DNA of 64,000 bases, taken from positions 566,318-630,317 of the forward strand of contig CAWDYS010000002.1 in assembly GCA_963806765.1 (NCBI GenBank), given 5' to 3'. Positions 27,661-43,175 of this stretch are shown here, piece after piece (the stretch's first letter is position 1; the number at the start of each line of letters is the position of its first letter). A program made the position numbers and the translations under genes. The notes below the pieces were generated by a model. The model had not been told where the DNA came from, did no database searches, and saw only the letters and a program-made list of their open reading frames with translations. This DNA is from an uncultured Nitrososphaerota archaeon (lineage in GTDB: Archaea; Thermoproteota; Nitrososphaeria; Nitrososphaerales; Gagatemarchaeaceae).

Positions 27661-27823
27661 ATCACCCGCAACGACATCCTCAGCCTCTTCTGCATGTGCG
27701 ATGGGAACGACTTGGGCAATGGCCGGGCGAATCTAGCCATCGGTCTTCGTCACAGGGAGCACCTTTGCAGTGACAAATAACATAGGTCATTAACCCTTAT
27801 ATTGTGTCGAATGTGTCTAACGA

Positions 27824-29965
27824 ATGTTGCGTATCAGCTGGAAAGCTGGAACGAGGCGAGCCATCGGAAGGGGCGTCGTCGCAATTGTGATTATCGTCAT
27901 CTTGGTATTGGGCGGAACTGGCGCCTATCTTTTGACCGCGAGCCAAAAGTCGAGCAGCGGTACTAGCGGTAGCACCACTACCTCTTCGAACGGGGTGGTG
28001 CCAAAGTCAATCACGTACGAGACGGTGTCCACGATGCAGTACCTCGACCCTCAGGTCGCCTACGACATCTTCGGCGCATCGGTGGACCAGAACGTCTATG
28101 AGCCGCTCCTCTGGTTCAACGGGACCAACTCTCAGACACCGATTCCCTGGCTGGCGCAGACCTACACCGTCTCGTCCGACCAGAAGACAGTCACCATATC
28201 GCTGAAAAGCGGGATCCAGTTCGCCGACGGGGAAGTGCTCAACGCCTCCGACGTCTACTTCACCTACAACCGTCTCCTCATGATGGACGGAAGCGCGCCC
28301 GTGGGACACGGGACGCAGGCTTCCTGGATTCTCCAGCAGCTCCTGAATACGAGCCTGAGCAGCACCCTCTGCTGTAGCCAGACCTATGGACCGGGCTACG
28401 TCCAGAAGGTCTTGGCGGAGGACTTCGTGCAGGTCACCGGCACTCTGACGCTCGTGCTCCACATCATGGAGCCGAACAGCGCCCTCCCGTTCATGCTCGC
28501 CAACCAGTGGGCGTACATAGTCGCCCCAGACTTCACCATGCAGCACGACATCCAGCTGTGGAGCCAGTCGAGCACGGGCTACCAGCTGCCCTACCCGCAG
28601 CCGTCTGGGAACCTTACGCAGAAGATGACCCAGTACTTCGATGACTACCAAGCAACGTGCAACGCCGGGGCGACGTTGAAGGGTTGCGGCCTCACGTACC
28701 TCGATTCCTCGGTCCAGGGCTCGACGGCCGGCACCGGGCCGTACACGTTCGCGAGCGTGGACCAGGCAAACAACATCATAACGCTCCAGGCGAATCCCAA
28801 CTACTGGGGCGGACCCGGCGGGAACATCCACCCGCAAATCCAGCAGGTCGTTTACAAGTACGTGCCAGACCAGACCACGCGAGAGATCAACCTCCAAGAC
28901 GCCGCAGCGTCTGGACAGGCCATGGTGATCGATGTTGCACCCACCAACATCTACGACGTTGCGAACAGGTCGCTTTGGCTGAACAACAACCAGTCTCGTC
29001 TCCACTCAGAAGGGCGTGACCATCTACGGACCGTACAGCCAGTATGCGACGCTCTTCATCCCCCTCGACACGAACGTTACCAACCCCTTCACCGGTACGT
29101 TCTACACGTTCCAGCCCTTCGCAGACCTCAGGCTCAGGACGGCGCTCGCCGACTCTGTCAACCTGACGCAGATTAACCTGCAGCTCAACAACAAGCTCGG
29201 AAGCGTAGCCAATGAGGTCGTGCCTCCGGGGATACCTCCGAACGGGGCATACAGACTCAGCGATACAGCCCGCCTACAGCTGACAACCCTGACCAGGTCC
29301 AAAAGCTGCTGCTCGACGCGATGATGCACCCGCTCACCCACTTCACCTACGAGAACGGGACCGCTGCGCGTGCGGGCGTGTTCGACAACACGTTCGGTTG
29401 CGCGCAGCTCGCCGCGAACAACCAGTGCTCGCATCCGACCGCGCAGACCATCACCCTCACCTACGCGACGGGTGATACCGTGGATGAAGCGATACTCAAC
29501 CAGATGGCTGAGACGATGAACAACGTCAGCACCACTTACAACATGGGTCTGACCGTCCAGCTCGTCCCGCTGCCCCTGGGCCAGATGACCAGTGAGGCGT
29601 TCGCCGGGCAGGTCTACGCTTGGGCTGAGGCGCCCTTCGGTTGGTACGACGACTACCCGTGGTCGATGGACTTCCTCGGACCGATACTGTCGCCGGGCGG
29701 GATATACACAGCTCCCGGAGGGTGGAACCTGCCGCAGATGGGGACGTACTGGAGCGAAGCGCAGCAGGCGAACACCGTGGGGAACGTAGCAGGCGTGGTC
29801 ACCGCGACGAACGCGATGGCGGCGCTCGGCAACAAGGAGGTAATGGACATCTGGACGTTCTACCCGGCCATCTATATGGTGATGACTTCGAACGTTCACG
29901 GATTCTACTTCAATCCGGCAATCTACACGACCGGGGAGCCGCAGTACTTCGCATCTCTGTCATAG
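27824..29965 (+). CDS. ABC peptide/nickel (Opp/Dpp) family-5 substrate-binding protein, two frameshifts (about 29000, about 29300)
   Basis: N-terminal anchor helix and S/T linker, then the SBP_bac_5 pattern (YLDPQVAYD...YEPLLWFN...LKSGIQFADGEVLNASDV). Continues through ORFs 29016.. and 29321..29965. Confidence 0.85.
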
Positions 29966-30200: not shown

Positions 30201-31319
30201 TTGAGACTCTACGAGTACGCCATCAGGCGCCTCCTGCTCATGGCCTTCGTCCTCCTCGCGCTGAGCCTCCTGATCTTCTACCTGACTCGCGGTCTGTTGC
30301 CCCCCGCGACTTCCCTTGCGCCTTACATCTCCCCAAGAATGGACGACCAGGCCAAGCTCTCCCTCGCCCAGGCCCTGGGCGTCGCGACCAGCTCCCGTCC
30401 TTCCTTCTCGGCTTTCGCAGCCCAGCAGCACGGATGCATCGTGCCTCTCTGGGGCCAGTACCTCGGGTGGCTGAAGAACGTGCTGACGGGGAACTGGGGG
30501 TTTACGCTCCTCCCAGGAATCTCGGGCACCGACACGACTTGGAACGTCTTCTTCCGCAGGTTCCCCTACACTGCGGAGCTCGCCATCGCGGGCGGCCTTC
30601 TCGCAATCCTGATTGGTGTCCCGTTGGGGATCGTCTCAGCGACGCACAACAACAAGCTCCCTGACCACATCTCGAGAATAGTCTCGCTGGGCGGGTACTC
30701 CGTCCCCCAGTTCTGGTTCGGAGCGATGCTCCAGATACTCTTCGTGCTCTACATCAGGGTGAACGGGATGGGGCTGCTCTCAGCGAGCGGCGCCCTCGCC
30801 ACAAGTTGCGCAATCTGCGTGAGCAACCCCGGGGTGATCACCTCGCACTCGGGGATTCCGATCATCGACGCGATTCTCTCCCTGAACTTCCCGTACCTCT
30901 GGGACTCGCTGGTTGCCCTGGCCCTGCCCGCCCTAACCCTTGCCATCACGTCCATCGGCGCCCTCACCAGAATCGTCAGGTCCAGCATGATGGATGTCTT
31001 AAGACAGGACTACATTCTGCTGGCGAGGTCGAAGGGTCTCAAGGAGAACGTGGTCGTCTACAGGCACGCGCTGAGGAACGCGATGCTCCCAGCCGTGACC
31101 GTCTCAGGGTTGCTCGTGGCATACCTCCTCGGGGGGGCGGTCATCGTCGAGATCGTCTTCTCCTGGCCGGGAGTAGGCAACGCATCCCTCGTCGCGGCCG
31201 ACGTTCTCGACATCAACTTCCTGGAGCTCTACGTCCTGGTCACCGCGGTAATCATCGTGGTCACGAATCTGGCCGTCGATCTCATCTACGCTAAGCTGGA
31301 CCCGAGGATTAGATACTGA
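30201..31319 (+). CDS. Opp/Dpp ABC transporter permease (OppB/DppB-like)
   Basis: 372 aa, N-terminal YAIRRLLLMAFVLL, BPD-transporter EAA-type loop (LARSKGLKENVVVYRHALRNA). Confidence 0.9.
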   Translation: MRLYEYAIRRLLLMAFVLLALSLLIFYLTRGLLPPATSLAPYISPRMDDQAKLSLAQALGVATSSRPSFSAFAAQQHGCIVPLWGQYLGWLKNVLTGNWGFTLLPGISGTDTTWNVFFRRFPYTAELAIAGGLLAILIGVPLGIVSATHNNKLPDHISRIVSLGGYSVPQFWFGAMLQILFVLYIRVNGMGLLSASGALATSCAICVSNPGVITSHSGIPIIDAILSLNFPYLWDSLVALALPALTLAITSIGALTRIVRSSMMDVLRQDYILLARSKGLKENVVVYRHALRNAMLPAVTVSGLLVAYLLGGAVIVEIVFSWPGVGNASLVAADVLDINFLELYVLVTAVIIVVTNLAVDLIYAKLDPRIRY

Positions 31320-31329
31320 GGAGAAGAGC

Positions 31330-32259
31330 ATGGAGAGCACCAAGAAACCCTCTGAGAGCGGCCGGCGCGGGCGACAGGACCTGCGCTACGCCCTCCACCT
31401 GTTGAGGAGGAACCCGATCGTCCTCGCGGGGGTCGTCCTCTCAACCGGGGCCATGATCATTGCGCTCCTTTCTCCACTGCTGGTGAACCCGACCGCCTGG
31501 CAACAGCAGCCTCTCAACTTGCGCCTCTGCTGGAACAACCCGCTCTTCAGCTGGGGGAGCGCGAACATCTTCAAGTGTTCGGGCGCGGTGTACCCCCTAG
31601 GCACCGACGCGTACGGAAGGAGCCTGCTCCAGATGATAATCTTGGCCATCCCGATCGACCTGAAGATCGCCTTCGAGGTCGTCGCCTCCGCTGTCCTGAT
31701 CGGCGTGTTCTTCGGAGGAGTCGCCGCGTACGTCGGAGGGATAGCCGACGAGGCCATACTCAGGATAACCGACATCTTCCTAGCAATTCCGGGGATCCTC
31801 CTCGCGATCGTCCTGATCGTCGTCATGGGACGGTCGCTGACGACCCTGACCATCGCCGTGCTGGTAACCTGGTGGCCGTACTACGTGAGGCTCGTCCGTT
31901 CCCAGGTCTTGGGCGAGAAGCAGAAGCCCTACGTCGAGAGGCTGCGCTCGATGGGTGCTGGCGGGCCCAGGATTCTCTTCCGGCACGTTATCCCGAACTC
32001 CGTCTACCCGGTCTTCGTTCAGGCGACGCTCGACATAGGCTCGGTGATACTCACGGTCTCCGCCCTGACATTCATCGGCTTGACGCCCAATCCCCTGCTC
32101 CCAGAGCTCGGGAACCTGGCCAACCAAGGCATCGGCTACTTCTTCACGGCGCCCTGGCTGATAGCCTTCCCCGGCCTCACGATACTCGCAGTCTCCATCG
32201 GTTTTAACCTGCTCGGGGACGGGATAAGGGACATTCTCGACCCGCGCCTCAGGAGATGA
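31330..32259 (+). CDS. Opp/Dpp ABC transporter permease (OppC/DppC-like)
   Basis: 309 aa; PLGTDAYGRSLL motif and an EAA-type loop (YVERLRSMGAGGPRILFRHVIPN). Confidence 0.9.
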   Translation: MESTKKPSESGRRGRQDLRYALHLLRRNPIVLAGVVLSTGAMIIALLSPLLVNPTAWQQQPLNLRLCWNNPLFSWGSANIFKCSGAVYPLGTDAYGRSLLQMIILAIPIDLKIAFEVVASAVLIGVFFGGVAAYVGGIADEAILRITDIFLAIPGILLAIVLIVVMGRSLTTLTIAVLVTWWPYYVRLVRSQVLGEKQKPYVERLRSMGAGGPRILFRHVIPNSVYPVFVQATLDIGSVILTVSALTFIGLTPNPLLPELGNLANQGIGYFFTAPWLIAFPGLTILAVSIGFNLLGDGIRDILDPRLRR

Positions 32260-32264
32260 CATAG

Positions 32265-33394
32265 ATGGCGAAACAAGGGGCCACCGAGACGCCGAACATC
32301 CTCGAGATCAAGGACCTGAAGGTCTCCTTCCACACCTACGCGGGCGACGTCAAGGCGCTCGACGGCATCGAGCATGTCGGTGAGGAAGGGCGAGCTCCTC
32401 GGCCTGGTGGGAGAGAGCGGCTGCGGCAAGTCCGTGACCACGCTCGCGGTGGCCGGGCTGCTGCCGCCGAACGCCGAGATACTCAGCGGGGAGGTTCTGC
32501 TCGACGGGACAAACCTCCTTTCGATTGGCAAGGACGAGATGCGCCGGGTCAGGCTCAAGGACATAGCGATCGTCTTCCAGGACCCAATGACCTATCTGAA
32601 CCCCGTGCTGACGGTCGGGTCCCAGATCTCGGAGATAATGGCCACCGACCCCGCAACGTTCATCCCCACGCTCGTCAGGCACAGGCTCGACGAGATCGGC
32701 AGGACCGAGGCAGGGGAGCCAGACCCCAAGCTGCAGGCAGAAAGTGCGCGGCTCTCCTCGGCCCTCCAGACTCTCCAGCTCAGCAAGAAGGAGTTCAAAT
32801 CGCTCAGCCGTCTCTACATCCTCGCGACGCTTCGCTCGGTGAGGCTCCCGAACCCTGAGAAGGTGATGAAGATGTTCCCCTTCGAGCCTCTCGGGCGGAA
32901 TGAGGCAGAGGATCATGATAGCCATGGCTCTCGTAAGGAGACCCAAGCTCCTGCTCGCCGACGAGATGACGACTGCCCTCGACGTCACCGTGCAGGCCCA
33001 GATACTTCAGATTCTGAGAGAGCTCAAGAGGGAGATAGACGCGTCCGTGCTCCTGATCACCCACGACCTGGCAATCGTCGCAGAGGTCTGCGACAGGGTA
33101 GCTGTCATGTACGCTGGGAACGTGGTCGAGGTCGCCGACGTCCGGGAGCTCTTCAGGAACCCGCTTCACCCCTACACGCGAGGTCTGCTCGCCTCGGTCC
33201 CCCGCGTCGACGCTACCTCGATCATGGACGAGGCGTCGATCAAGGGCTCGGTGCCCGACCTCATCTCCCCGCCCAGCGGATGCCGGTTCCATCCGAGGTG
33301 CCCCCGAGCCTTCGACAGGTGCCCCCGAGAGAAGCCGGCGCTCGTCGAGGTGAGCCCGGGACACGTGGTCTCGTGTTTCCTCTATGGAGCGTGA
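32265..33394 (+). CDS. Opp/Dpp ABC transporter ATPase (OppD-like), two frameshifts (about 32370, about 32890)
   Basis: GESGCGKSV, SGGMRQRIMIA (after the shift), LLLADEMTTALD, C-terminal oligopeptide-ATPase Cys motif (GCRFHPRCP). Confidence 0.85.
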
Positions 33395-34442
33395 AGAATC
33401 GATGGGAGACCCCGACTATCTGCTCGAGACGAAAGACCTGTTCAAGCTCTTCCCAATGAGGGAGGGCCTCCTGGGCAGGAAGGTCGCCTACGTGAGGGCT
33501 GTCGACGGGGTCACCATTGGGGTGAGGAGGGGAGAGACCCTTGGACTGGTCGGCGAGTCGGGATGCGGCAAGACCACCCTGGGGAGAACGATCCTGAGGC
33601 TCACGGAGGCGTCGGGCGGTACGATCAGGTTCGACGGAGTGGAGATTTCAGCCCTCAAGGGACGCCAGCTCAAGCCGTTCAGGGGGAGGATGCAGATAGT
33701 GTTCCAGGACCCCTACGCCTCCCTGGACCCCCGTCAGAACGTCAGGTCAGCGATAGTGGAACCTATGAGGATACACAACGTGGTGTCTTCGAGGAGGGAA
33801 GCCAACCGCCGCGCCGAGGAGCTGATAGAGACGGTCGGCCTCAACCCGGACCACCTCGCGAGGTACCCTCACGAATTCTCCGGAGGCCAGAGGCAGAGGA
33901 TATCAATCGCCATCGCGCTCGCCGTCAAGCCTTCCTTCATAGTCCTGGACGAGCCGACATCATCGCTCGACGTCTCCGTCCAGGCCCAGATACTCAAACT
34001 GCTGAAGACCCTGCAGCTGGAGCTGGGTCTTACGTATCTGTTCATCTCCCACAACCTGGCTGTGATCAGACAGATCTGCGACAGGACCGCCGTCATGTAC
34101 CTAGGTAGGATAGTCGAACTCGGCGCAACCGTCAGGTTGTTCGAGAACCCGAAGCACCCGTACACGAAGGCGCTGCTCTCCTCAGTCCCCGTCCCAGACC
34201 CTTTGAAGAGGAAGGAGCTGGCCGTGCTTTCCGGTGACATCTCAGTCCCGATGGGATTGCCGACCGGCTGCAGGTTCAGGGCGAGGTGCGCCTACGCGAC
34301 TGATGTGTGCGCCGCGGCCGACCCTCCCCTGCTGGAGGTCGAGAAGGACCACTGGATAGAATGCCACTACGACATCGATTTCGACACCGCTTCTCAGAGG
34401 AGGCTGGAGCCCCCAGCTAGCGGGAAGCCGCCACGGCGATGA
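33384..34442 (+). CDS. Opp/Dpp ABC transporter ATPase (OppF-like)
   Basis: GESGCGKTT, FSGGQRQRISIA, FIVLDEPTSSLD, GCRFRARC. Confidence 0.9.
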   Translation: MEREESMGDPDYLLETKDLFKLFPMREGLLGRKVAYVRAVDGVTIGVRRGETLGLVGESGCGKTTLGRTILRLTEASGGTIRFDGVEISALKGRQLKPFRGRMQIVFQDPYASLDPRQNVRSAIVEPMRIHNVVSSRREANRRAEELIETVGLNPDHLARYPHEFSGGQRQRISIAIALAVKPSFIVLDEPTSSLDVSVQAQILKLLKTLQLELGLTYLFISHNLAVIRQICDRTAVMYLGRIVELGATVRLFENPKHPYTKALLSSVPVPDPLKRKELAVLSGDISVPMGLPTGCRFRARCAYATDVCAAADPPLLEVEKDHWIECHYDIDFDTASQRRLEPPASGKPPRR

Positions 34443-34792: not shown

Positions 34793-35017
34793 TCAAACGT
34801 GTTTCAGGAACTCGTTTCGTTCAATCCTGGCATCGTTCAGTATGGCCTGCAGGGTTCCCGTGTCCAGCTCCGGGTGCAAGGGCACCGTGATGAACGACGC
34901 GTCGTTGGTAAGGGTGACGTGGCTGCCTTTCTGTCTCAGTACCCTGAACCCATAGTACTTTGCCAAGGTCTTGACCAGCATTTTCCCGGAGATAGCTGGC
35001 AGCCTAGGCAAGTACAA
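34793..35017 (-). CDS. hicA: HicA-family (YcfA-like) type II toxin
   Basis: SGKMLVKTLAKYYGFRVLRQKGSHVTL...ITVPLHPELDTGTLQAIL. Confidence 0.8.
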   Translation of the reverse strand: MYLPRLPAISGKMLVKTLAKYYGFRVLRQKGSHVTLTNDASFITVPLHPELDTGTLQAILNDARIERNEFLKHV

Positions 35018-35023
35018 CTACTT

Positions 35024-35251
35024 CTACGCAGGTACCAGCTGACCCTCTTCTATGGCAACCTTTCCGTGTTCAATCGCGTACTCTGCCATCGCTTCGAGAT
35101 GAACTTGAATGGCTTCCCTCAGATTCTTTCTTGCCTCCTCTCTTGTCTTGCCCTGCGTCGTTATGCCGAGTTCAGGAACACGCGCCACATAGAGTTTTTC
35201 TCCCTTGGATATCTTCACGCTGAACTTCATCGACATGACTGAACCAATCAC
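35024..35251 (-). CDS. hicB: HicB-family (UPF0150) antitoxin
   Basis: KFSVKISKGEKLYVARVPELGITTQGKTREEARKNLREAIQVHLEAM. Confidence 0.75.
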   Translation of the reverse strand: MIGSVMSMKFSVKISKGEKLYVARVPELGITTQGKTREEARKNLREAIQVHLEAMAEYAIEHGKVAIEEGQLVPA

Positions 35252-35332
35252 TCCGTAATTCTATTTAAAGAACTCCGTCCGGATTAGCCGAAGCCCAGGA
35301 GGGCCGGAGACGATTCTCCGGACTGTATTCCG

Positions 35333-35353
35333 TCACTCCTTGTCGATGAACTC
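35333..35353 (-). repeat. R5: short copy of the aEF-2 3'-end repeat
   Basis: TCACTCCTTGTCGATGAACTC (core identical; the stop becomes TGA). Confidence 0.7.
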
Positions 35354-35436
35354 GAGAGACCGTGCGACACACACCTGGAATACTCGGTCAACCCGAGCAT
35401 GGTTGCCTTTATCTACCGACTGAACCTCTTTCTTGC

Positions 35437-35659
35437 ATGATGAAAGCGAAGACGCGCCCCTTCACGGTGGCAATCGAGCGTGGAGAGGACGGCTACTATG
35501 TAGCGAGTGTCGTGGAACTCCCGGGGTGCCACACCCAGGCGAAGACTCTGCGGGAATTGGACAGGCGCGTGAAGGAGGCCATCGAGACTCAATCTCGAGG
35601 CAAGGGGCGACGACTTTTCCATCCCTGAGCTTGTGGCCGTGAAGAAGGTCAATGTTTGA
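35437..35659 (+). CDS. hicB: HicB-family antitoxin, 1-nt insertion near 35590
   Basis: MMKAKTRPFTVAIERGEDGYYVASVVELPGCHTQAKTLRELDRRVKEAIE, then after removing one A: LNLEARGDDFSIPELVAVKKVNV*. Its stop overlaps the hicA start. Confidence 0.8.
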
Positions 35660-35901
35660 ACAGACCTCGCAAGCAACTTCATCCTGCGAAGCCGAGAGGT
35701 CTGCTGAAGGCACTTTCCAATCTGGGTTTCGCCGCAAGGCAGGCAAAGGGCTCGCACGTCTTCTTGAAGCATCCGGACGGTCGCACGACAACGGTCCCCG
35801 TGCATCCAGGCGAAGATATCGATAGGGTGCTTCTGCGGAAGATAGCCGCCGATGTCGGTCTAGAGCCAGAAGAGCTGATGTATCTGGTTGACGAGGCCTA
35901 A
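35656..35901 (+). CDS. hicA: HicA-family type II toxin
   Basis: LLKALSNLGFAARQAKGSHVFLKHPDGRTTTVPVHPGEDIDRVLLRKI. Confidence 0.85.
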   Translation: MNRPRKQLHPAKPRGLLKALSNLGFAARQAKGSHVFLKHPDGRTTTVPVHPGEDIDRVLLRKIAADVGLEPEELMYLVDEA

Positions 35902-35943: not shown

Positions 35944-36015
35944 AGGAGCCCGACGCCTGCTCAGGGGCTACTCCTTGTCGATGAACTCTGACGGCGTCGG
36001 GGGCTCCGGCGAGAG
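35944..36015 (-). repeat. R6: master copy of the repeat (genuine aEF-2 3' end plus about 25 nt downstream)
   Basis: Encodes ...LSPEPPTPSEFIDKE* with stop at 35968-35970. Reference for R1-R5. Confidence 0.85.
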
Positions 36016-38197
36016 GCCCTTCCTCTTCCTCGTCTCGAGTACCAACGGCAGGAGCATGTTCGTCGGGACCGACTGCCAGAGCTTGAAGTTGGTGTTCCAC
36101 GTGGCCTTGCCCGCCGTCGCGCCCCTCATGACCTGCGAGAGGTCGAAGGTCTCGGCGGCCGGAATCTCGCCCTGTATGATGGTCACGACCTCCCTCTGCT
36201 CGACGTTGATGAGCTTGCCGCGTTTAGCGCTGATGACGCCCGTGATGGCCCCTATGAGGTCCCCGGGCCCCTTCACCTCTATGCCCAGTATCGGCTCCAG
36301 GAGCGTCGGGTTCGCCGTCAGCATCGCCCCGAGTATAGCCCTCCTCGTCGCCGGCATCAGCTGCGCGTAGGTCCTGTGCGCCGGGTCCTCGTGCGGGACA
36401 TAGTGCGTCAGCGTCACCTTGATTCCCCTGCAGAATCTCGTAGGCAAGGGGTCCGTTCTGCATGATGTCCTCGAAGCCCGCCCGGATGGAGTCCATCGAC
36501 TCCTGCAGGTATTGGACGCCCTTGGTCTCCTCCGTGAGCATGTTGCCCTTGGGGTCGATGGTGACCACGGACTTCGCCTCGTCCGACGACCACCCGTTGT
36601 CCCTCAGCGTCTTCTGGATGCCCTTCTTGTCCGTCATCTCGTTGAGCGTCCCGTTCCTGATGAGCTCGACGATGTGCGGGTCGAGCGGCTCGACCTTGAT
36701 GAATATCTTGTTGTGCCTGTTCGGGGAGCGCGACATGATTGGCCCCGCCGCCTGCCTGACCGTCTCCCTGTAGTTGATGATAGGCGGCGAGGTGATTATC
36801 TCCAGCCCCTGCTGCTGGAGCATCGTCGTCGCTATCTCGAGGTGGAGCACGCCCATGCCGGCCATTAGCGTCTCGCCCGACTCCTGGTTGATTGTGATTA
36901 TGAGGTTCGGGTCCTCGATGTTGAGCTTGCGCATCGCCTCGACGAGCTTCGGGAGGTCCCTCGGGTGCTTCGCCTCGACCGCCGTCGTCACGACCGGCTC
37001 GGAGACGTAGTGTATCGACTCGAACGGTACGACGTCCTTGAGGTTCGATATGGTTTCGCCCGAGCGGATGTCGAGCCCCAGCAGCGCCGGGATGTTGCCC
37101 GCCGGGAGCGAGTCCACAATCTCTCTCTGGAAGCCCATGAAGAGCTGGACCGACTGTATCTTGCCCTCCTTCTTCGAGTTGAGCAGGTAGACAGGGTCGC
37201 CGTTGGAGACCGAGCCCGAGAAGAGCCTGCCGACGCCGACCAGCCCCGCCGCCGGGTCCACCACGACGTTGGTGACCATCATGACCATCGGGCCGTTCTC
37301 GTCGCACGCCAGCAGCGACTTGCCCACCTCGCTGTTGAGGTCGCCCTGCCAAATCTTGGGGATGCGGTAGGCCTGCGCTACGTCGGGCCGTGGGTGGTGC
37401 TTGACGACCATGCCGAGGAGCGCCTCGTGGAGCGGGAGCCTCTTGCCAAGGCCCTCCGGCCCCACGGTAGTGTACGCCTCGATGATGTCCTTGAACGACA
37501 TGCCCTCCCGCTTCGCCATGGCCGCGTTGAAGCCCCACTTGTCCTTGCTGGAGCCGAAGGCCACCTGCCCCGCCGCGACCGTCACCTTCCACTTCTCCTT
37601 GTACTCGGGCTCGGCGTAGGTGTCGATGAGGCGGTTGAAGTCGTTGACGATGTCGAAGAGCCACTTCAGCATCGCGTCGGGCCCCAGACGGAGCTCTTTG
37701 ATCAGGCGGTCGACCTTGTTGATGTATAAGACCGGACGGACCCTCTCCTCGAGCGCCTGGCGCGTGACTGTTTCTGTTTGCGTCATCACGCCTTCAACAC
37801 TGTCTACAACGACGATAGCCCCGTCAACGGCCCTTAACGACCTCGTAACCTTGCCTGTGAAGTCGATGTGGCCGGGCGTGTCGATGAGGTTGATGACATA
37901 CGGCTGTCCCTCCTCTTCGTAGTAGAGCGTGACATTGGCCGCCTTGATGGTCATCTGCCTCGACTGCTCCAGCTCCATGTAGTCCAGGGCTAACGCTTGA
38001 CCAGCTACGCTAGGACTCAACATTCCACACGCTGCCAGGAGGGAGTCGGATGTCGTCGTTCTCGGTAGTAGAATCAGACCAAGCTACTGGTTGCTACTAT
38101 TCCCGTGGTCGACATGCGCGATGATCCCGAGGTTGCGTATGTGTGCCCTATCGTGGACGATTTTGAGGGCTTCTGTCGTAGACTTGAACTTCGGCAT
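35968..38197 (-). CDS. fusA: Archaeal translation elongation factor 2 (aEF-2), interrupted by a 39-nt insertion (38061-38099) and one frameshift near 36430
   Basis: MPKFKSTTEALKIVHDRAHIRNLGIIAHVDHG[39 nt]KTTTSDSLLAACGM...LIDTPGHIDF...; C-terminus ...GKATWNTNFKLWQSVP...PSEFIDKE*. All GTPase motifs are present once the insertion is removed. Confidence 0.95.
38061..38099 (-). other. Candidate bulge-helix-bulge (BHB)-type intron within the aEF-2 P-loop codons
   Basis: 39 nt with in-frame TAG codons. Precise removal restores AHVDHGKTT. Flanks fold into helix / 3-nt bulge / 4-position helix / 3-nt bulge, with both junctions after bulge nucleotide 2 (see finding). Confidence 0.4.
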
Positions 38198-38676: not shown

Positions 38677-39570
38677 TTGAGCGGATTAAAGGTCCCTCCA
38701 GACCGCGGGTCGGTCTTGCTTCAACTCGAGATTTCGAAGGTGTTCGTCAGCGGGGTTAACGTGCGACGGAGCCCCGGAGATGTGGGAGATCTCATGCAGT
38801 CGATCAGCGAGAAGGGCATACTCGAGCCCCTCCTGGTGAGGCCGGTCGAGGACCGCTACGAGCTGATCGTGGGCTCCCGGAGGTTCGAGGCGGCGAAGCG
38901 GCTGGGCTTGAAGGAGGTACCGGCCATCGTCAGGGCGATGGGGGACGAGGACGCCCTCATCGTCTCGCTGGTCGAGAATGTCCAGCGAAAGGACGTGGAG
39001 CCCGAGGAGGAGTACGACGCCCTGATGAAGCTCAAGAAGCTGAATCCGGCGCTCTACTCCACGGTGGACCAGCTGGCCAGGGCTATAGGCAAGTCGCGTT
39101 CGTACGTCGAGGACCGCGTCGCCGCGGTCGAGACGGTCAGGACGATCCGGAGGGGGTCGAAGAAGTCGACCATCGCCGTCATGCAGTCTCCGACGAGGGA
39201 GGAGAGGAAGGAGGGCGTCCTGCCGATCAAGCATGCCGCGTTCCTTCACAGGGCCGAGGAGGCGCCGCTGGTCCAGAAGCTCCCGGAGGAGAAGCGCGCG
39301 AGGAAACTGTCCGCGCTGGCCGAGACGATCGCCGAGCTCCCCAGACGCGAGGCCCAGGAGGTCGTGGAGCGCTTCGTCAGGGCCCCGCAGAGGCCCATCG
39401 AGGAGATTAAGAGGGAGACCGAGGCGCTTCACGCGTCCAAGATCGAGCTCGTGCTGGACCCCAGAGTCGCCGACGGTCTCAGGAGGGCCGCCGAGGAGAG
39501 GAAGACGACCATGGAAGCGATAGCAGCTCTCGCAATTCACTCTTGGCTAAGGCAGAACAAGTACGACTAG
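38677..39570 (+). CDS. ParB/Srx N-terminal-domain protein (ParB-like nuclease/partition family)
   Basis: ISKVFVSGVNVRRSPGDVGDLMQSISEKGILEPLLVRP...YELIVGSRRFEAAKRLGLKEVPAIV...VENVQRKDV is the ParB box pattern. Confidence 0.8.
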   Translation: MSGLKVPPDRGSVLLQLEISKVFVSGVNVRRSPGDVGDLMQSISEKGILEPLLVRPVEDRYELIVGSRRFEAAKRLGLKEVPAIVRAMGDEDALIVSLVENVQRKDVEPEEEYDALMKLKKLNPALYSTVDQLARAIGKSRSYVEDRVAAVETVRTIRRGSKKSTIAVMQSPTREERKEGVLPIKHAAFLHRAEEAPLVQKLPEEKRARKLSALAETIAELPRREAQEVVERFVRAPQRPIEEIKRETEALHASKIELVLDPRVADGLRRAAEERKTTMEAIAALAIHSWLRQNKYD

Positions 39571-39824
39571 CTGGTCTCCCTCGAGTTTGAGATAGCCGTA
39601 CTGGCTGAGGAGGTCGTCGCAGATGTTGCCAGAGCCCACGTTCTCGTTGAAGCGGCCGCAATGGTACGACCGGCCCCTGATGCTGAAAGCCTTGCGGCTC
39701 TCGTATGAGTGTCCGTTGGTGTACGGAATTGTTCCGAGGTTCAGCGGCTCCATGCTCGAATACCACAAGTGGGCAGTTAAGCACCAGCACTCGGAGGCCG
39801 CTGGGACTTGAGCCAGCCGTCGAC

Positions 39825-42800
39825 TCAGGAAGAGGCTTGGCCTCGGCGCCTCTGAGCCAAGGCAGCAGCCACGAGAGTGACTAGCGCGACAGCAATCGGG
39901 GCCAACATTGCGTCCGTGGTTGCAATCGAGCTGCTGCTGCCCGCTGAGCTGGCCGACGATGCCGTCGAGGTCACCGATGACGATGCCGCGGGGGTGGTTG
40001 AGGTAGTGACCGTCGTCGCGCCCACCTCGAGTATCCCGTTCTGGATTGTCACCTGTGCCGACTGGAGCGTCCCCGCTGCCATGCTGCCATCCACGGTCTT
40101 CGTTGACATGACCGTCCCGTTCTGCACCACCGTGTACGTGAGGGTGTAGGCCTCGGTGGACTCCTCCATTGCGGTCCCGTCCACCACCGTCGTGAAGCTC
40201 TGGACGCTCGGCGGGAGTGCGATGACCACCGTCCCGTTCCCAAAGTCGAGATAGTACGAGCCCGGGATGACCTCTATCGCCGTGCGCGAGATGTTCAGCA
40301 GCGCGGGGTTGTAGCCCGTGTGGCCTCCCGTCGAGTTGTACACGTTCAGGTAGAGCTCGATGTCCCGGATGGTTGACCGTTATGAGCGTCCAGGTGTCCG
40401 TGGACGCGGAGTGGTTCACGTTCCGCATCAGGGGGAACCAGTTCGCGGCGCCGGGGAAGCTGAGCTGTGCTTCGACCGACGAGTAGGTCTGGAAGCCTCT
40501 CTCGAAGACCTGGGCCTCCGGGAACAGGAGCACGGTGAGCCCTCCGTACATCATCGAAGTCGTCGTGTTGGCGATCACGGCGGCCTTCACGGCCTGCACG
40601 ACGGCACTGGCCGCGGTCCTCACGCTCTGGTCCGTTATCCCTGAGTTCAGGATGTTCTGGGCAAGGCTCCTCACGTCGAGGTAGGGGTCGGTTCCGTCGC
40701 ACTTCACCGTCTTAGCCAGCACCTGCAGCATCGTCTGGTTGAACTGCTGGCTCTTGGTCCCGTAGTCCCTGACCAGGGCGGTGGAGAGCGAGTTCAGCCC
40801 GGACACGACCCCCTGCAGCTGCGACGAGTCGATGGCCGCGAGGGTCGGTATCTCTCCCGCCACGGACATGTAGTATGGCGTCGTGTACTTCGCGCGGAAC
40901 GTGCTGACTATCGTGTTGAGGTAGGTCACCGTAGCCTGGTCGGGGCTGCTGAGCAGTGCGGTGAGGAACCCCGTGTAGTCGTAGCCGCCCGACTGCGCGG
41001 TACGCTCGGAGGCCGTGAAGTAGGACGCGTCAGCTCCTCAGCTGGTAGAGGACTTCCACCTGCGACATGAGGCAGGCGTCGAAGGAGAAGATGTCCAGCT
41101 TCGGCGAGATCCCGCTGAGGGCGGTCGCAAGTTCCGGGATGGAAAGGTAGCCCGTGGTGCTCACCTTGCCGAAGCCCAGGATTCCGGAGCCGTGGTCGGT
41201 CAGGATGAGCTGGTTCCTGTCCGCCGAGACCATCCCCATCGCCGTGGTCAGGAAGGCGTGCAGCGTCGCGGGGTCGAAGATGTTCGTCTGGGACCAGACG
41301 CCGCCGACCTGGGTCACGGAGCCGTTCGCGACCCTGTACAGCGCTATCGTCCCTGTGGGCTGGATTGCGGTTCCGGGGAAGCTTGTCGGGGAGTCTGCGT
41401 ACCAGAGCACGAGGATGCCCACGGCCGGGTTGTCGTTGACCTTCGTCGCCGCGGCCATCTCGAGCACGTTCCCTCTTATGTCAAGATGGAACTCCGGGAA
41501 CGGCGCGCAGTACATCATGATCAGCCACTTCGCCTTCAGCAGGCTAACCAGTACCTTCGTGTTCTGCGTCTGCCCGTTGCTCGACGCGACCACGGTGAGT
41601 GTGTAGTTCTGAGGGAGCTGGGTCCCTCCGGGCTGCATGCAGTTGCCCACCACGCAGTTGAGCGTCGCGTTGACCTGCACGGGGGACGACCCCTTGGACG
41701 AAGGCTGTATGTCAGCGGTGCCGGTGAAGCCGCCAGCGCCCACTGGCCTGAAAGTGAGCGTCAGCCCCTTCGGGAAGTTCTGGCCCTGCGCGACCGCGAT
41801 ATGGATCGGGGCCGTGAGGCTCAGGTTGCTGTAGTTCACGGAGATGGTCGCGTAGGCCGGCTCCGTGGGATACACAGAGACCGTCGATGAGGTCGGGGAC
41901 CCGGTCAGAAGGACGGACGACCAGTACGCCTCGTTGGCCCCCCTGCCGGAGACGGGCCCTCCTTCCGCCTGCTCCATCACCACGTAGAACGGACCTCCCC
42001 CGACCGAGGTGCTTCCCGTGCCCAGGACGTGTCCCGCCTGGCTTATGCTGTACTTCGCGATCCCCGTCCTGTTCACCGAGATCAGCACCGTGTAGAAGAC
42101 CTTCAGGCTCGGCGTCAGGTACAGCTTCGGTGCCCCCGACCAGCCCCCTGCGCCGCTCCCGGTCTTGACGTCGATGCCGTAATAGCACACGTTGGGCGCT
42201 ATGGTGTCGTTGTACGGGGTCCCGCAGACGGACGGGTTGCCGCAGTCTCCCAGATGACTGCAGTTCTCATCGTTGAGGTTGCCGATTATCGCCAAGCCGG
42301 ACGATGCGGCCGCCGAGGCTATGGCGAATACAAACGTGTGTCCGTTCGATACGATCCCCTCCACTATGGCCGTCACGTTGAACGGCGGCGCGAACGACTG
42401 AACGCTCTGTATCGTGACTAGCTCGCAGTTCCCGGCTACCTCGGCCACCTCCATTCCCGCGGAGGAGAAGGTAGGCTCCAGCGGGACTAGCGAACACGAG
42501 GAGCCGACATCGTCCTGTCCGAAGACCGAGCCGACGGGACCGTTTATCACCCACATGCTCGCGCTGAGGCTCGTGTCTTGGGTGAAGTTGTCAGACAGCA
42601 GGACCTGCTGGGGCTGCAGAGTCGAAGAGGAGGTCGACGTGGCTGCAGAAGCCGTCTGTGGCGGCGAGGGGACGACCAGCAGGGTGACAAAGGACGAGGC
42701 TGTCAGGAGCAGAACCGTCAGGATGACCAAGGCATGGTTTGACCGCGAGAGCCGACCCATACTCTCGCGCAGGCGCTCGGGATACGGCTTACTTACAGCT

Positions 42801-42838
42801 TCCTCCGCCGTCGCGGCGCCCAGCGTCTGCATGCCCAA
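39825..42838 (-). CDS. Large membrane-anchored surface protein with clostripain-like (peptidase C11) domain, at least two frameshifts (about 41032, about 40345)
   Basis: N-terminal anchor helix, about 450-aa beta-rich region, C11 core (ILTDHGSG His, FSFDACLMSQVEV Cys, YQLR-ADASYFTASE across the 41032 shift), S/T-rich stalk and C-terminal helix plus basic tail (APIAVALVTLVAAALAQRRRG). Confidence 0.8.
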
Positions 42839-42883
42839 GCTAATGGCAGCTTGAAGTTCCAGCCTCCATCGCGGCCCAAGGTC

Positions 42884-43175
42884 ATGGCGGTCGAGGCCGA
42901 GGCTCTGGACAACATCAGGGAGGCCATCGAGCTCGTTCTCGAAGATTCGATGAGTCGGGTGAAGCGGGAAGGCGGGAAGCTGGTACAGACTGATTGTCCG
43001 GGCCTAATAGGCTCCCTCTAATGTCGGGCCGTCAGCTAATCAAGACCCTCTCCAACTAAGGTTCAAACCAGTGCGTCAGTGAGGCAACCATGTCTTCATG
43101 AGGCATCCCGACGGCCGCAGGACTGTCGGACAGGGAGTTTACCTCCGGATGCTGTGCTGGGCCTGGCTCCACGAC
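42884..43175 (+). pseudogene. Decayed hicB-hicA pair
   Basis: HicB C-terminal fragment (MAVEAEALDNIREAIELVLED...), then from ATG 43021 MSGRQLIKTLSN* / GSNQCVS / ...VFMRHPDGRRTV: HicA-like, with an in-frame stop and frameshifts. Confidence 0.5.

Follow-up and report, generated by a model that had tools for sequence, protein, structure and literature searches.

In Archaea, genes that encode proteins are usually taken to be uninterrupted. An intron in the pre-mRNA of cbf5 was reportedly described in Crenarchaeota by Watanabe in 2002 and Yoshinari in 2006, and transfer RNA (tRNA) introns with the non-canonical HBh', hBH and BHL forms of a motif termed bulge-helix-bulge (BHB) are said to have been set out by Marck and Grosjean in 2003. 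Here we analyze a stretch of 64,000 nucleotides (nt) from an uncultured Nitrososphaerota archaeon (GenBank assembly GCA_963806765.1, contig CAWDYS010000002.1), in which the gene for archaeal elongation factor 2 (aEF-2, or EF-2), an essential translation GTPase, is interrupted by 39 nt within its P-loop. This stretch is called the window below, and all coordinates are window positions. We consider it very probable that the 39 nt are a genuine relaxed (HBh'/BHL-type) BHB intron in the aEF-2 coding sequence of a Gagatemarchaeaceae-like thaumarchaeon.

Within the Crenarchaeota, the cbf5 intron is known from Desulfurococcales and Sulfolobales (Yokobori 2009, PMC2738675), and its borders were defined by the rule that BHB cleavage falls between the second and third nucleotides of a bulge (PMC2738675). 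The putative EF-2 intron resembles it in several respects. Both are short, lie within coding sequence and have a BHB-like, often relaxed motif. In both, the known or predicted splice points fall between bulge nucleotides 2 and 3, the host enzyme is (presumably, for EF-2) of the hetero-oligomeric (alpha-beta)2 endonuclease type, and the distribution is patchy, from which gain and loss between closely related lineages can be read. The genes differ, one encoding the EF-2 P-loop and the other the pseudouridine synthase Cbf5, and so do the phyla: the EF-2 intron hosts are mesophilic soil and peat Thaumarchaeota, and a published table gives the cbf5 intron as absent from Cenarchaeum and Nitrosopumilus (PMC2738675). 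Furthermore, splicing has been demonstrated experimentally for cbf5, whereas for EF-2 it is proposed from sequence comparison.

Introns with HBh', hBH or BHL motifs are found in tRNA genes of Crenarchaeota, Thaumarchaeota and Nanoarchaeota (reviewed in PMC4090602, PMC5829648). Thaumarchaeota have an (alpha-beta)2 splicing endonuclease, which along with the epsilon2 type cuts these relaxed motifs (PMC5829648, PMC4090602). Such tRNA introns share with the EF-2 element a helix of 4 base pairs (bp), one well-formed 3-nt bulge closed by the intron hairpin and a looser second site, and presumably also the processing enzymes. The host RNA differs, because for EF-2 it is an mRNA in which the exon parts of the motif must encode protein as well and synonymous codon positions supply the outer helix. 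Another mRNA, HVO_1309 of Haloferax volcanii, has a BHB intron in its 5' untranslated region (UTR) (PMC7714728) and is processed by the tRNA-splicing endonuclease, as is presumed for EF-2. However, the HVO_1309 intron lies in the untranslated leader, where it leaves the reading frame uninterrupted, and its host is a euryarchaeon.

As late as 2020, cbf5 was still cited as the only archaeal coding-sequence intron (PMC7714728), and as far as the reference lists of articles from 2018 (PMC5829648) and 2025 (PMC12397907) reach, it is the only case cited there for introns of this kind. The initial annotation of the window had likewise named cbf5 as the sole established coding BHB intron, to which the literature searched adds the Haloferax 5'-UTR intron. 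No EF-2 BHB intron and no Gagatemarchaeaceae introns were reported in that literature, whose coverage is incomplete, so that an earlier report is possible. Within these bounds, the EF-2 element would be the second known intron inside an archaeal protein-coding sequence.

The interrupted aEF-2 gene and its predicted fold

The aEF-2 gene lies on the minus strand and starts at ATG 38197. Its first exon (38100-38197) opens with and translates to MPKFKSTTEALKIVHDRAHIRNLGIIAHVDHG plus AA, ending in AHVDHG and the first two bases of the codon for Lys33. Next come the 39 nt at 38099-38061 (TAGTAGCAACCAGTAGCTTGGTCTGATTCTACTACCGAG), which split the P-loop as AHVDHG|KTT and have a G+C content of 46%, compared with 61% for the window. 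Read in frame, the insert gives N S S N Q stop, with UAG as its sixth codon, and its final two bases are AG. The same frame then continues as (K)TTTSDSLLAACGMLSPSVAGQ, beginning (K)TTTSDSLL, in a second exon (35968-38060) that extends from the third base of Lys33 to the stop codon and is broken in the window by an extra T at 36434/36435.

Removal of 38061-38099 joins the split Lys33 codon (AA|A) and rebuilds GGG AAA ACG. When the 39-nt excision is moved by one base, GRT or GNT results, and GKT is recreated by 38099-38061 only. With the intron removed and one T deleted, the gene encodes a protein of 729 residues that is 95-96% identical to its intact relatives. ARAGORN and Rfam searches of the window and the site found no tRNA and no known RNA family. 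The insertion is real as an observation: the start codon, the 39 nt, the resumption of the frame, the in-frame TAG, the low G+C content and the single excision that restores the P-loop had all been described in the initial annotation, and each is borne out by the sequence.

Around the insertion, the RNA is predicted to fold as a relaxed BHB motif. Its central helix, H, pairs CGGG of the exon (38102-38105; the third base of His31 plus Gly32) with ACCG of the intron (38063-38066) through three Watson-Crick pairs and a G.A. The 5' splice point lies after the second base of AA|U (38099-38101), which forms a 3-nt bulge in minimum-free-energy (MFE) folds. Beyond the bulge stands an intron hairpin, h' (38067-38098), in which AGUAG (38098-38094) pairs with CUACU (38071-38067) and closes a 22-nt loop with a small stem inside. 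The 3' splice point lies after the second base of AG|A (38060-38062), and these bases are part of the 7-nt strand (AGA plus ACGA) of a 4x7 internal loop, opposite ACCA at 38109-38106. An exon-exon helix, h, has its 5' arm at 38110-38118 (AUGUCG at 38115-38110, plus C38118 and G38117) and its 3' arm at 38047-38055 (CGACAU at 38055-38050, plus C38048 and G38047), and thereby pairs the codons for Ala-His-Val-Asp with those for Thr-Thr-Ser-Asp.

The combination of these parts is rare in the window. The core motif (a 4-bp helix with at most one mismatch and a 5-bp intron helix), if required to be in register with an excision of 39 nt, is present at only 0.14% of window positions. When the 6-bp outer helix is also demanded, 1 of 127,860 positions remains, and this is the EF-2 site.

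Insertions at the same site in related archaea

Once corrected, the window protein is 95-96% identical to EF-2 of Nitrososphaerales metagenome-assembled genomes (MAGs), 'Candidatus Gagatemarchaeum stordalenia' among them, that come from peat and acid soil. Many database relatives are annotated as proteins of 684 or 669/670 residues starting at Met46 or Met61, and such short calls read as the signature of an N-terminal interruption. DNA of the relatives was fetched from independent MAGs and metagenomes (JGI, NCBI, ENA and Logan), and insertions in the same codon were found in 12 further loci or assemblies (11 distinct sequences) of Gagatemarchaeaceae-like Thaumarchaeota. They measure 21 nt (L210), 23 nt (L005, L202 and L205), 29 nt (L011 and L209), 30 nt (L206), 32 nt (L207), 33 nt (L003, L203 and L204) or 39 nt (L208), the last being identical to the window insert at 36 of 39 positions. 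Several of these lengths (23, 29 and 32 nt) are not multiples of 3. Each of the 13 inserts, that of the window included, contains an in-frame stop, located 4-11 codons in and usually within the hairpin loop.

Excision as predicted by the BHB rule produces an intact open reading frame (ORF) of 729-730 residues in 12 of 12 relatives. The ratio of nonsynonymous to synonymous substitution (dN/dS) is 0.06-0.15 among intron-bearing alleles and 0.10 among intron-less ones. Because the two are similar, the intron-bearing alleles are, by this measure, working genes under purifying selection and not pseudogenes. One of them (L210) lies on a contig of 1.47 Mb, and no second EF-2 of that contig was present among the best 120 protein hits. 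Alignment of the aEF-2 genes of relatives had been proposed as a check in the initial annotation, and the finding of inserts at the same site in 12 loci, with the structure kept, speaks in favor of its reading.

The elements common to these sequences can be read from 5' to 3'. Helix h contributes 6 bp (ACGUNG with CNACGU) and two further pairs. Then come unpaired ACCA, H's 5' strand, the AAN bulge, the h' hairpin of 5-9 bp, H's 3' strand and, after AGA and four unpaired bases, the 3' arm that completes h. When sequences were folded singly for MFE, this structure was recovered in 9 of 10 cases. RNAalifold, applied to a MAFFT alignment of the full sequences, arrived at the same structure unaided, with 10 of 17 pairs compensatory. 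A core alignment from which loops had been left out, and which leans towards the structure because it was cut by hand and anchored on the splice sites, had 95.6% of its cells paired, with 9 of 15 pairs changed on both sides; pairing fell to 37-59% when the partner strand was slid by 1-3 columns.

Within helix H, whose exon and intron strands covary, 97.2% of cells pair and two of the four pairs are compensatory. Ten of the 12 distinct sequences have four standard pairs, and the window and L208 have three plus the G.A. The outer pair is CG in eight sequences and UA in one, and the inner pair is GC in five, UA in two, UG in one and another combination in one. For example, CAC GGG stands with ..CUCG or ..CCCG, CAU GGG with CCCA, and GGU with ACCG. 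All five pairs of the intron hairpin h' are changed on both sides among relatives, and the AAN bulge between H and h' is present in every sequence and in the MFE and consensus folds. In 13 of 13 sequences, a cut between bulge nucleotides 2 and 3 gives the only points that restore both the frame and GKTT, which extends to all of them the coincidence of splice points and frame-restoring junctions first proposed for the window. L207 divides its Lys codon as A|AG in place of AA|A, and its motif is shifted as a unit, with the junction, by one base.

Helix h is built of codons, which leaves only synonymous positions free to vary, and three pairs of facing wobble positions were therefore compared between 10 distinct intron-bearing exon sequences and 12 intron-less alleles. 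The His28/Thr36 wobbles are paired in 10/10 of the former and 4/12 of the latter, those of Val29/Thr35 in 10/10 and 7/12, and those of Ala27/Ser37 in 7/10 and 2/12. At Val29/Thr35, all four Watson-Crick combinations occur (GC in four, AU in two, CG in two and UA in one). Since the intron-less alleles pair less often at these positions, the comparison argues that the exon helix h is under selection only when the intron is present. The exon-exon pairing that the initial annotation had proposed for the window alone thus recurs at the synonymous positions of its relatives.

Bases that are free of coding constraint also show a pattern at the 3' end of the introns. All 13 (window; L003, L005, L011 and L202-L210) end in AG and are followed by A (AG|A), and AGA is accordingly invariant at this site.

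Uninterrupted alleles are common in the wider group. Among 78 species-representative loci with a readable P-loop site, 74 are uninterrupted (62 with KTTM, which is typical of ammonia oxidizers, 11 with KTTT and 1 with KTTL) and four are interrupted, namely L003, L005, L011 and the odd L044. The intron-less L201 (Ga0556607_0007589) has the exon bases CAT GGG AAA ACG ACC ACG, the same as the spliced form of L005 with its 23-nt insert, and looks like a recent precise loss of the intron. Its protein, P0003, is called from Met46, which had been taken as a sign of an intron; this was rejected, as L201 has none and the short call must have another cause. An over-long tblastn match at L002 (3001-6024) was an artifact, the downstream ORF being unrelated to EF-2. 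A scan of metagenomes with the pattern GACCAYGGNAA-N(15-45)-AGAACNACNAC gave at least 120 chance matches, with no EF-2 among the matches listed.

The locus L044 (positions 420-480; JACPBJ010000148.1, a groundwater Thaumarchaeota MAG) is peculiar. It has an intron-like hairpin, CUAAUCCGAG...CUCGGUUAG, at the same site, flanked by CGG and CCG. From this 5.4-kb locus 41 codons are missing (residues 34-74, including switch I), and the other 640 codons are intact. If cut by the BHB rule, L044 is joined in frame as G-K-N-V-T. It might represent a variant with a deletion, an error of assembly or an odder case.

Proposed splicing and its alternatives

The proposed pathway begins in the pre-mRNA, where the exon bases CGGG upstream of the 5' splice site would pair with the terminal intron bases ACCG to form the 4-bp helix. 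On the intron side of this helix, the 3-nt bulge AA|U and the stable intron hairpin would set the 5' splice site; on the exon side, the 3' site AG|A would lie in the internal loop closed by the 6-8-bp exon-exon helix. The tRNA-splicing endonuclease EndA, of (alpha-beta)2 type, would then cut 3' of A38100 and 3' of G38061. The exons would be joined as ...CACGGGAA|AACGACGACA... by an RNA ligase that is presumably RtcB, restoring the Lys codon from AA|A and the P-loop as AHVDHGKTT. Splicing would be obligatory for EF-2 synthesis, because an unspliced RNA stops inside the intron and would give only a 37-residue peptide and no working GTPase.

Several points weigh against the identification of the 39 nt as a spliced intron. 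Excision and exon ligation are steps that we infer from the sequences, and the parts given to EndA and RtcB, whose genes are absent from the window, are presumed. Of the features expected for a BHB intron, the central 4-bp helix, a 5' 3-nt bulge closed by helices, correct cleavage points and covariation are all found, but the closed 3-nt bulge that a canonical hBHBh' motif has at its 3' site is replaced by the 4x7 internal loop, making the motif non-canonical. The initial annotation had given every pairing correctly (AUGUCG/CGACAU, CGGG/ACCG and AGUAG/CUACU, with AAU and AGA as bulges) and had rightly called the motif relaxed and HBh'-like; its proposal of 3-nt bulges on both strands holds for the 5' bulge and fails for the 3' one. 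The G.A mismatch in the central helix, which it had listed as a weakness, is real and peculiar to the 39-nt type (window and L208), since other types have four standard pairs. Taken alone, the window sequence has a fold energy no better than that of shuffles (z = -0.31). In the core alignment none of 500 shuffles matched the observed pairing, a figure that overstates significance because the sequences share descent; the controls with slid partners and with intron-less alleles are free of that problem.

A further difficulty is that the window copy of EF-2 carries a frameshift and could be inactive. The extra T at 36434/36435, a 1-nt insertion that was overlooked in the initial annotation, changes ATC to ATTC (GAG AT[T] CTGC, with TT in place of the single T of relatives) on the minus strand. 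It shifts the frame, leaving the C-terminal 159 codons in an ORF at 35968-36447. Thirteen relatives read GAG-ATC/ATA/CTG/TTG/TTC-TGC at this site, without the extra base, and against a 95%-identical metagenome contig (L211) it is the sole gap in 1739 aligned nt. Single-base indels also occur in other genes of the window, so that the frameshift is best seen as a probable error of assembly or, failing that, a private mutation of very recent date, unrelated to and separate from the 39 nt.

Nevertheless, two lesions in one gene raise the question of whether this EF-2 copy is a dead pseudogene, with a working EF-2 elsewhere in the genome. The Peptidase_C11 gene near 41033 and the SBP_bac_5 gene at 27821-29965 are broken as well, which could reflect genome decay. 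We regard a dead copy as quite improbable because the insert and its conserved structure are common to relatives with intact, strongly constrained genes. Aside from the extra T, the alignment with L211 has no gap, the protein matches its intact relatives closely after two corrections, and the top hits include no second copy from the large contig to which the intron-bearing L210 belongs. The same 1-nt frameshifts are typical of error-prone assembly and might cast doubt on the 39 nt themselves. That these are an artifact of assembly or sequencing is next to inconceivable, given that the insert of L208 and related inserts at the same site come from independent JGI, NCBI, ENA and Logan assemblies.

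If the insert is real and the gene is alive, the 39 nt might still be something other than an intron. A miniature mobile DNA element kept in the RNA, with TAGTAG/CTACTA as terminal inverted repeats, would account for the resemblance of the hairpin arms to such repeats and for a mismatch between intron type and EF-2 tree that hints at horizontal movement or recombination. The initial annotation held that recurrence of the 39-mer at other loci would favor such an element; in the window, where this was checked, a single copy of the insert's 34-nt core (38066-38099) is present. Target-site duplication is absent, as the flanking exon bases sum to exactly GGG AAA ACG, and the "repeats" vary in sequence among relatives yet stay complementary, as in an RNA stem. 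In copy number, duplication and repeat conservation the insert is thus unlike a miniature inverted-repeat transposable element. The exon-intron and exon-exon pairings are conserved, moreover, and an element that was not removed would destroy an essential gene under purifying selection; a mobile element is highly unlikely. Equally slight is the chance that ribosomes bypass or recode the 39 nt without splicing, by hopping as on phage T4 gene 60 or by readthrough. The stable hairpin and the early stop after a Gly codon do recall gene 60, but the site departs from programmed bypass of that type in having no matching take-off and landing pair and no GGN codon ahead of the point at which the frame resumes. 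A Lys codon arises only when AA and A are physically joined, and the conserved exon-intron pairing fits BHB geometry and not a bypass signal. Readthrough is ruled out by the 23-, 29- and 32-nt lengths together with the in-frame stops. An intein is likewise incompatible with in-frame stops in all 13 inserts and with lengths of 21-39 nt.

Distribution, implications and genomic surroundings

In a neighbor-joining tree of the spliced genes, introns are scattered from the deepest branches (L210 and L206) to the tips, with intron-less alleles in between. Intron type and gene tree are discordant: the window, with 39 nt, clusters with L005, with 23 nt, and L208, which also has 39 nt, clusters with L204, with 33 nt. 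Over its first 300 nt the window gene is closer to L208 than over its remainder. The pattern agrees with an intron of old age that was precisely lost several times, together with some recombination around the site, although the data are thin. The mismatch between type and tree, the invariant 3' AG and the universal in-frame stop hint at mobility or selection over simple decay.

The same P-loop is interrupted in another manner in sister lineages (Conexivisphaerales and relatives). There, the EF-2 proteins P0074 and P0093 contain inteins of ~530-540 residues at AHVDHGK|C...HN|TT, one of them with a LAGLIDADG-type Pfam domain. The intein site, between Lys33 and Thr34, is 1-2 nt from the intron site. 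Unlike the 39-nt element, which contains stops and needs to be removed at the RNA level, these inteins are translated and removed as protein. Intervening elements in this phylum seem to have a hotspot at the EF-2 P-loop.

It is conceivable, if unlikely, that the EF-2 intron is maintained for its position, because it protects the P-loop from invasion by homing-endonuclease inteins, couples EF-2 production to EndA and ligase activity, or both. HAC1 and XBP1 exemplify control by unconventional splicing. If EF-2 were indeed coupled to tRNA splicing, prokaryotes would have a counterpart of this HAC1/XBP1-type control.

The occurrence of a putative intron of this kind in an essential translation GTPase, in another phylum and in mesophilic soil hosts suggests that mRNA splicing by the tRNA endonuclease is no crenarchaeal oddity. 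There are also consequences for annotation. Gene callers cut such EF-2 genes to 684 or 669 residues, without the P-loop, or would flag them as pseudogenes, and because EF-2 is a standard marker, these errors affect marker-gene phylogenies and estimates of MAG completeness. The alleles with and without introns, the seven lengths and the one slid junction form a natural series for the study of relaxed BHB recognition and of intron gain and loss. They would also illustrate how a splicing structure can shape codon choice at synonymous positions.

A home-made BHB scan of the window yielded 24 further candidates for ORF-restoring introns, none of which is claimed; with ~3000 matches to the bare motif, the scan is a low-power test. 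A simple frameshift better accounts for the candidate examined, at 53094-53134; the others resembled artifacts of gene junctions.

Other genes of the window are broken by indels. The clostripain-family Peptidase_C11 gene (39547-43003, minus strand) lies in two frames, split near 41033 by a single extra base in CAGCTGAGGAGCTGAC, and positions 19-157 and 160-306 of its Pfam profile fall in the two separate ORFs. A short intron was considered here and rejected in favor of an indel, as the frames differ by a single base and there is no inserted sequence. The family-5 solute-binding protein gene, SBP_bac_5 (27821-29965, plus strand), occupies three overlapping frames, implying two more indels, and is followed by permease and ATPase genes of an oligopeptide-type ATP-binding cassette (ABC) transporter (30201-34442). 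Very long overlapping open frames, the longest of 2165 codons and coding-like in base pattern, span 49009-54532 and 54631-64000 on the plus strand; they had no match in Pfam and may be giant proteins broken by further indels. The gene at 38677-39570, upstream of EF-2 on the other strand, has a ParB N-terminal domain. Immediately downstream of EF-2, at 34793-35901, there are two HicA/HicB toxin-antitoxin pairs, and in L203 a HicB/HicA pair is likewise located downstream of EF-2.

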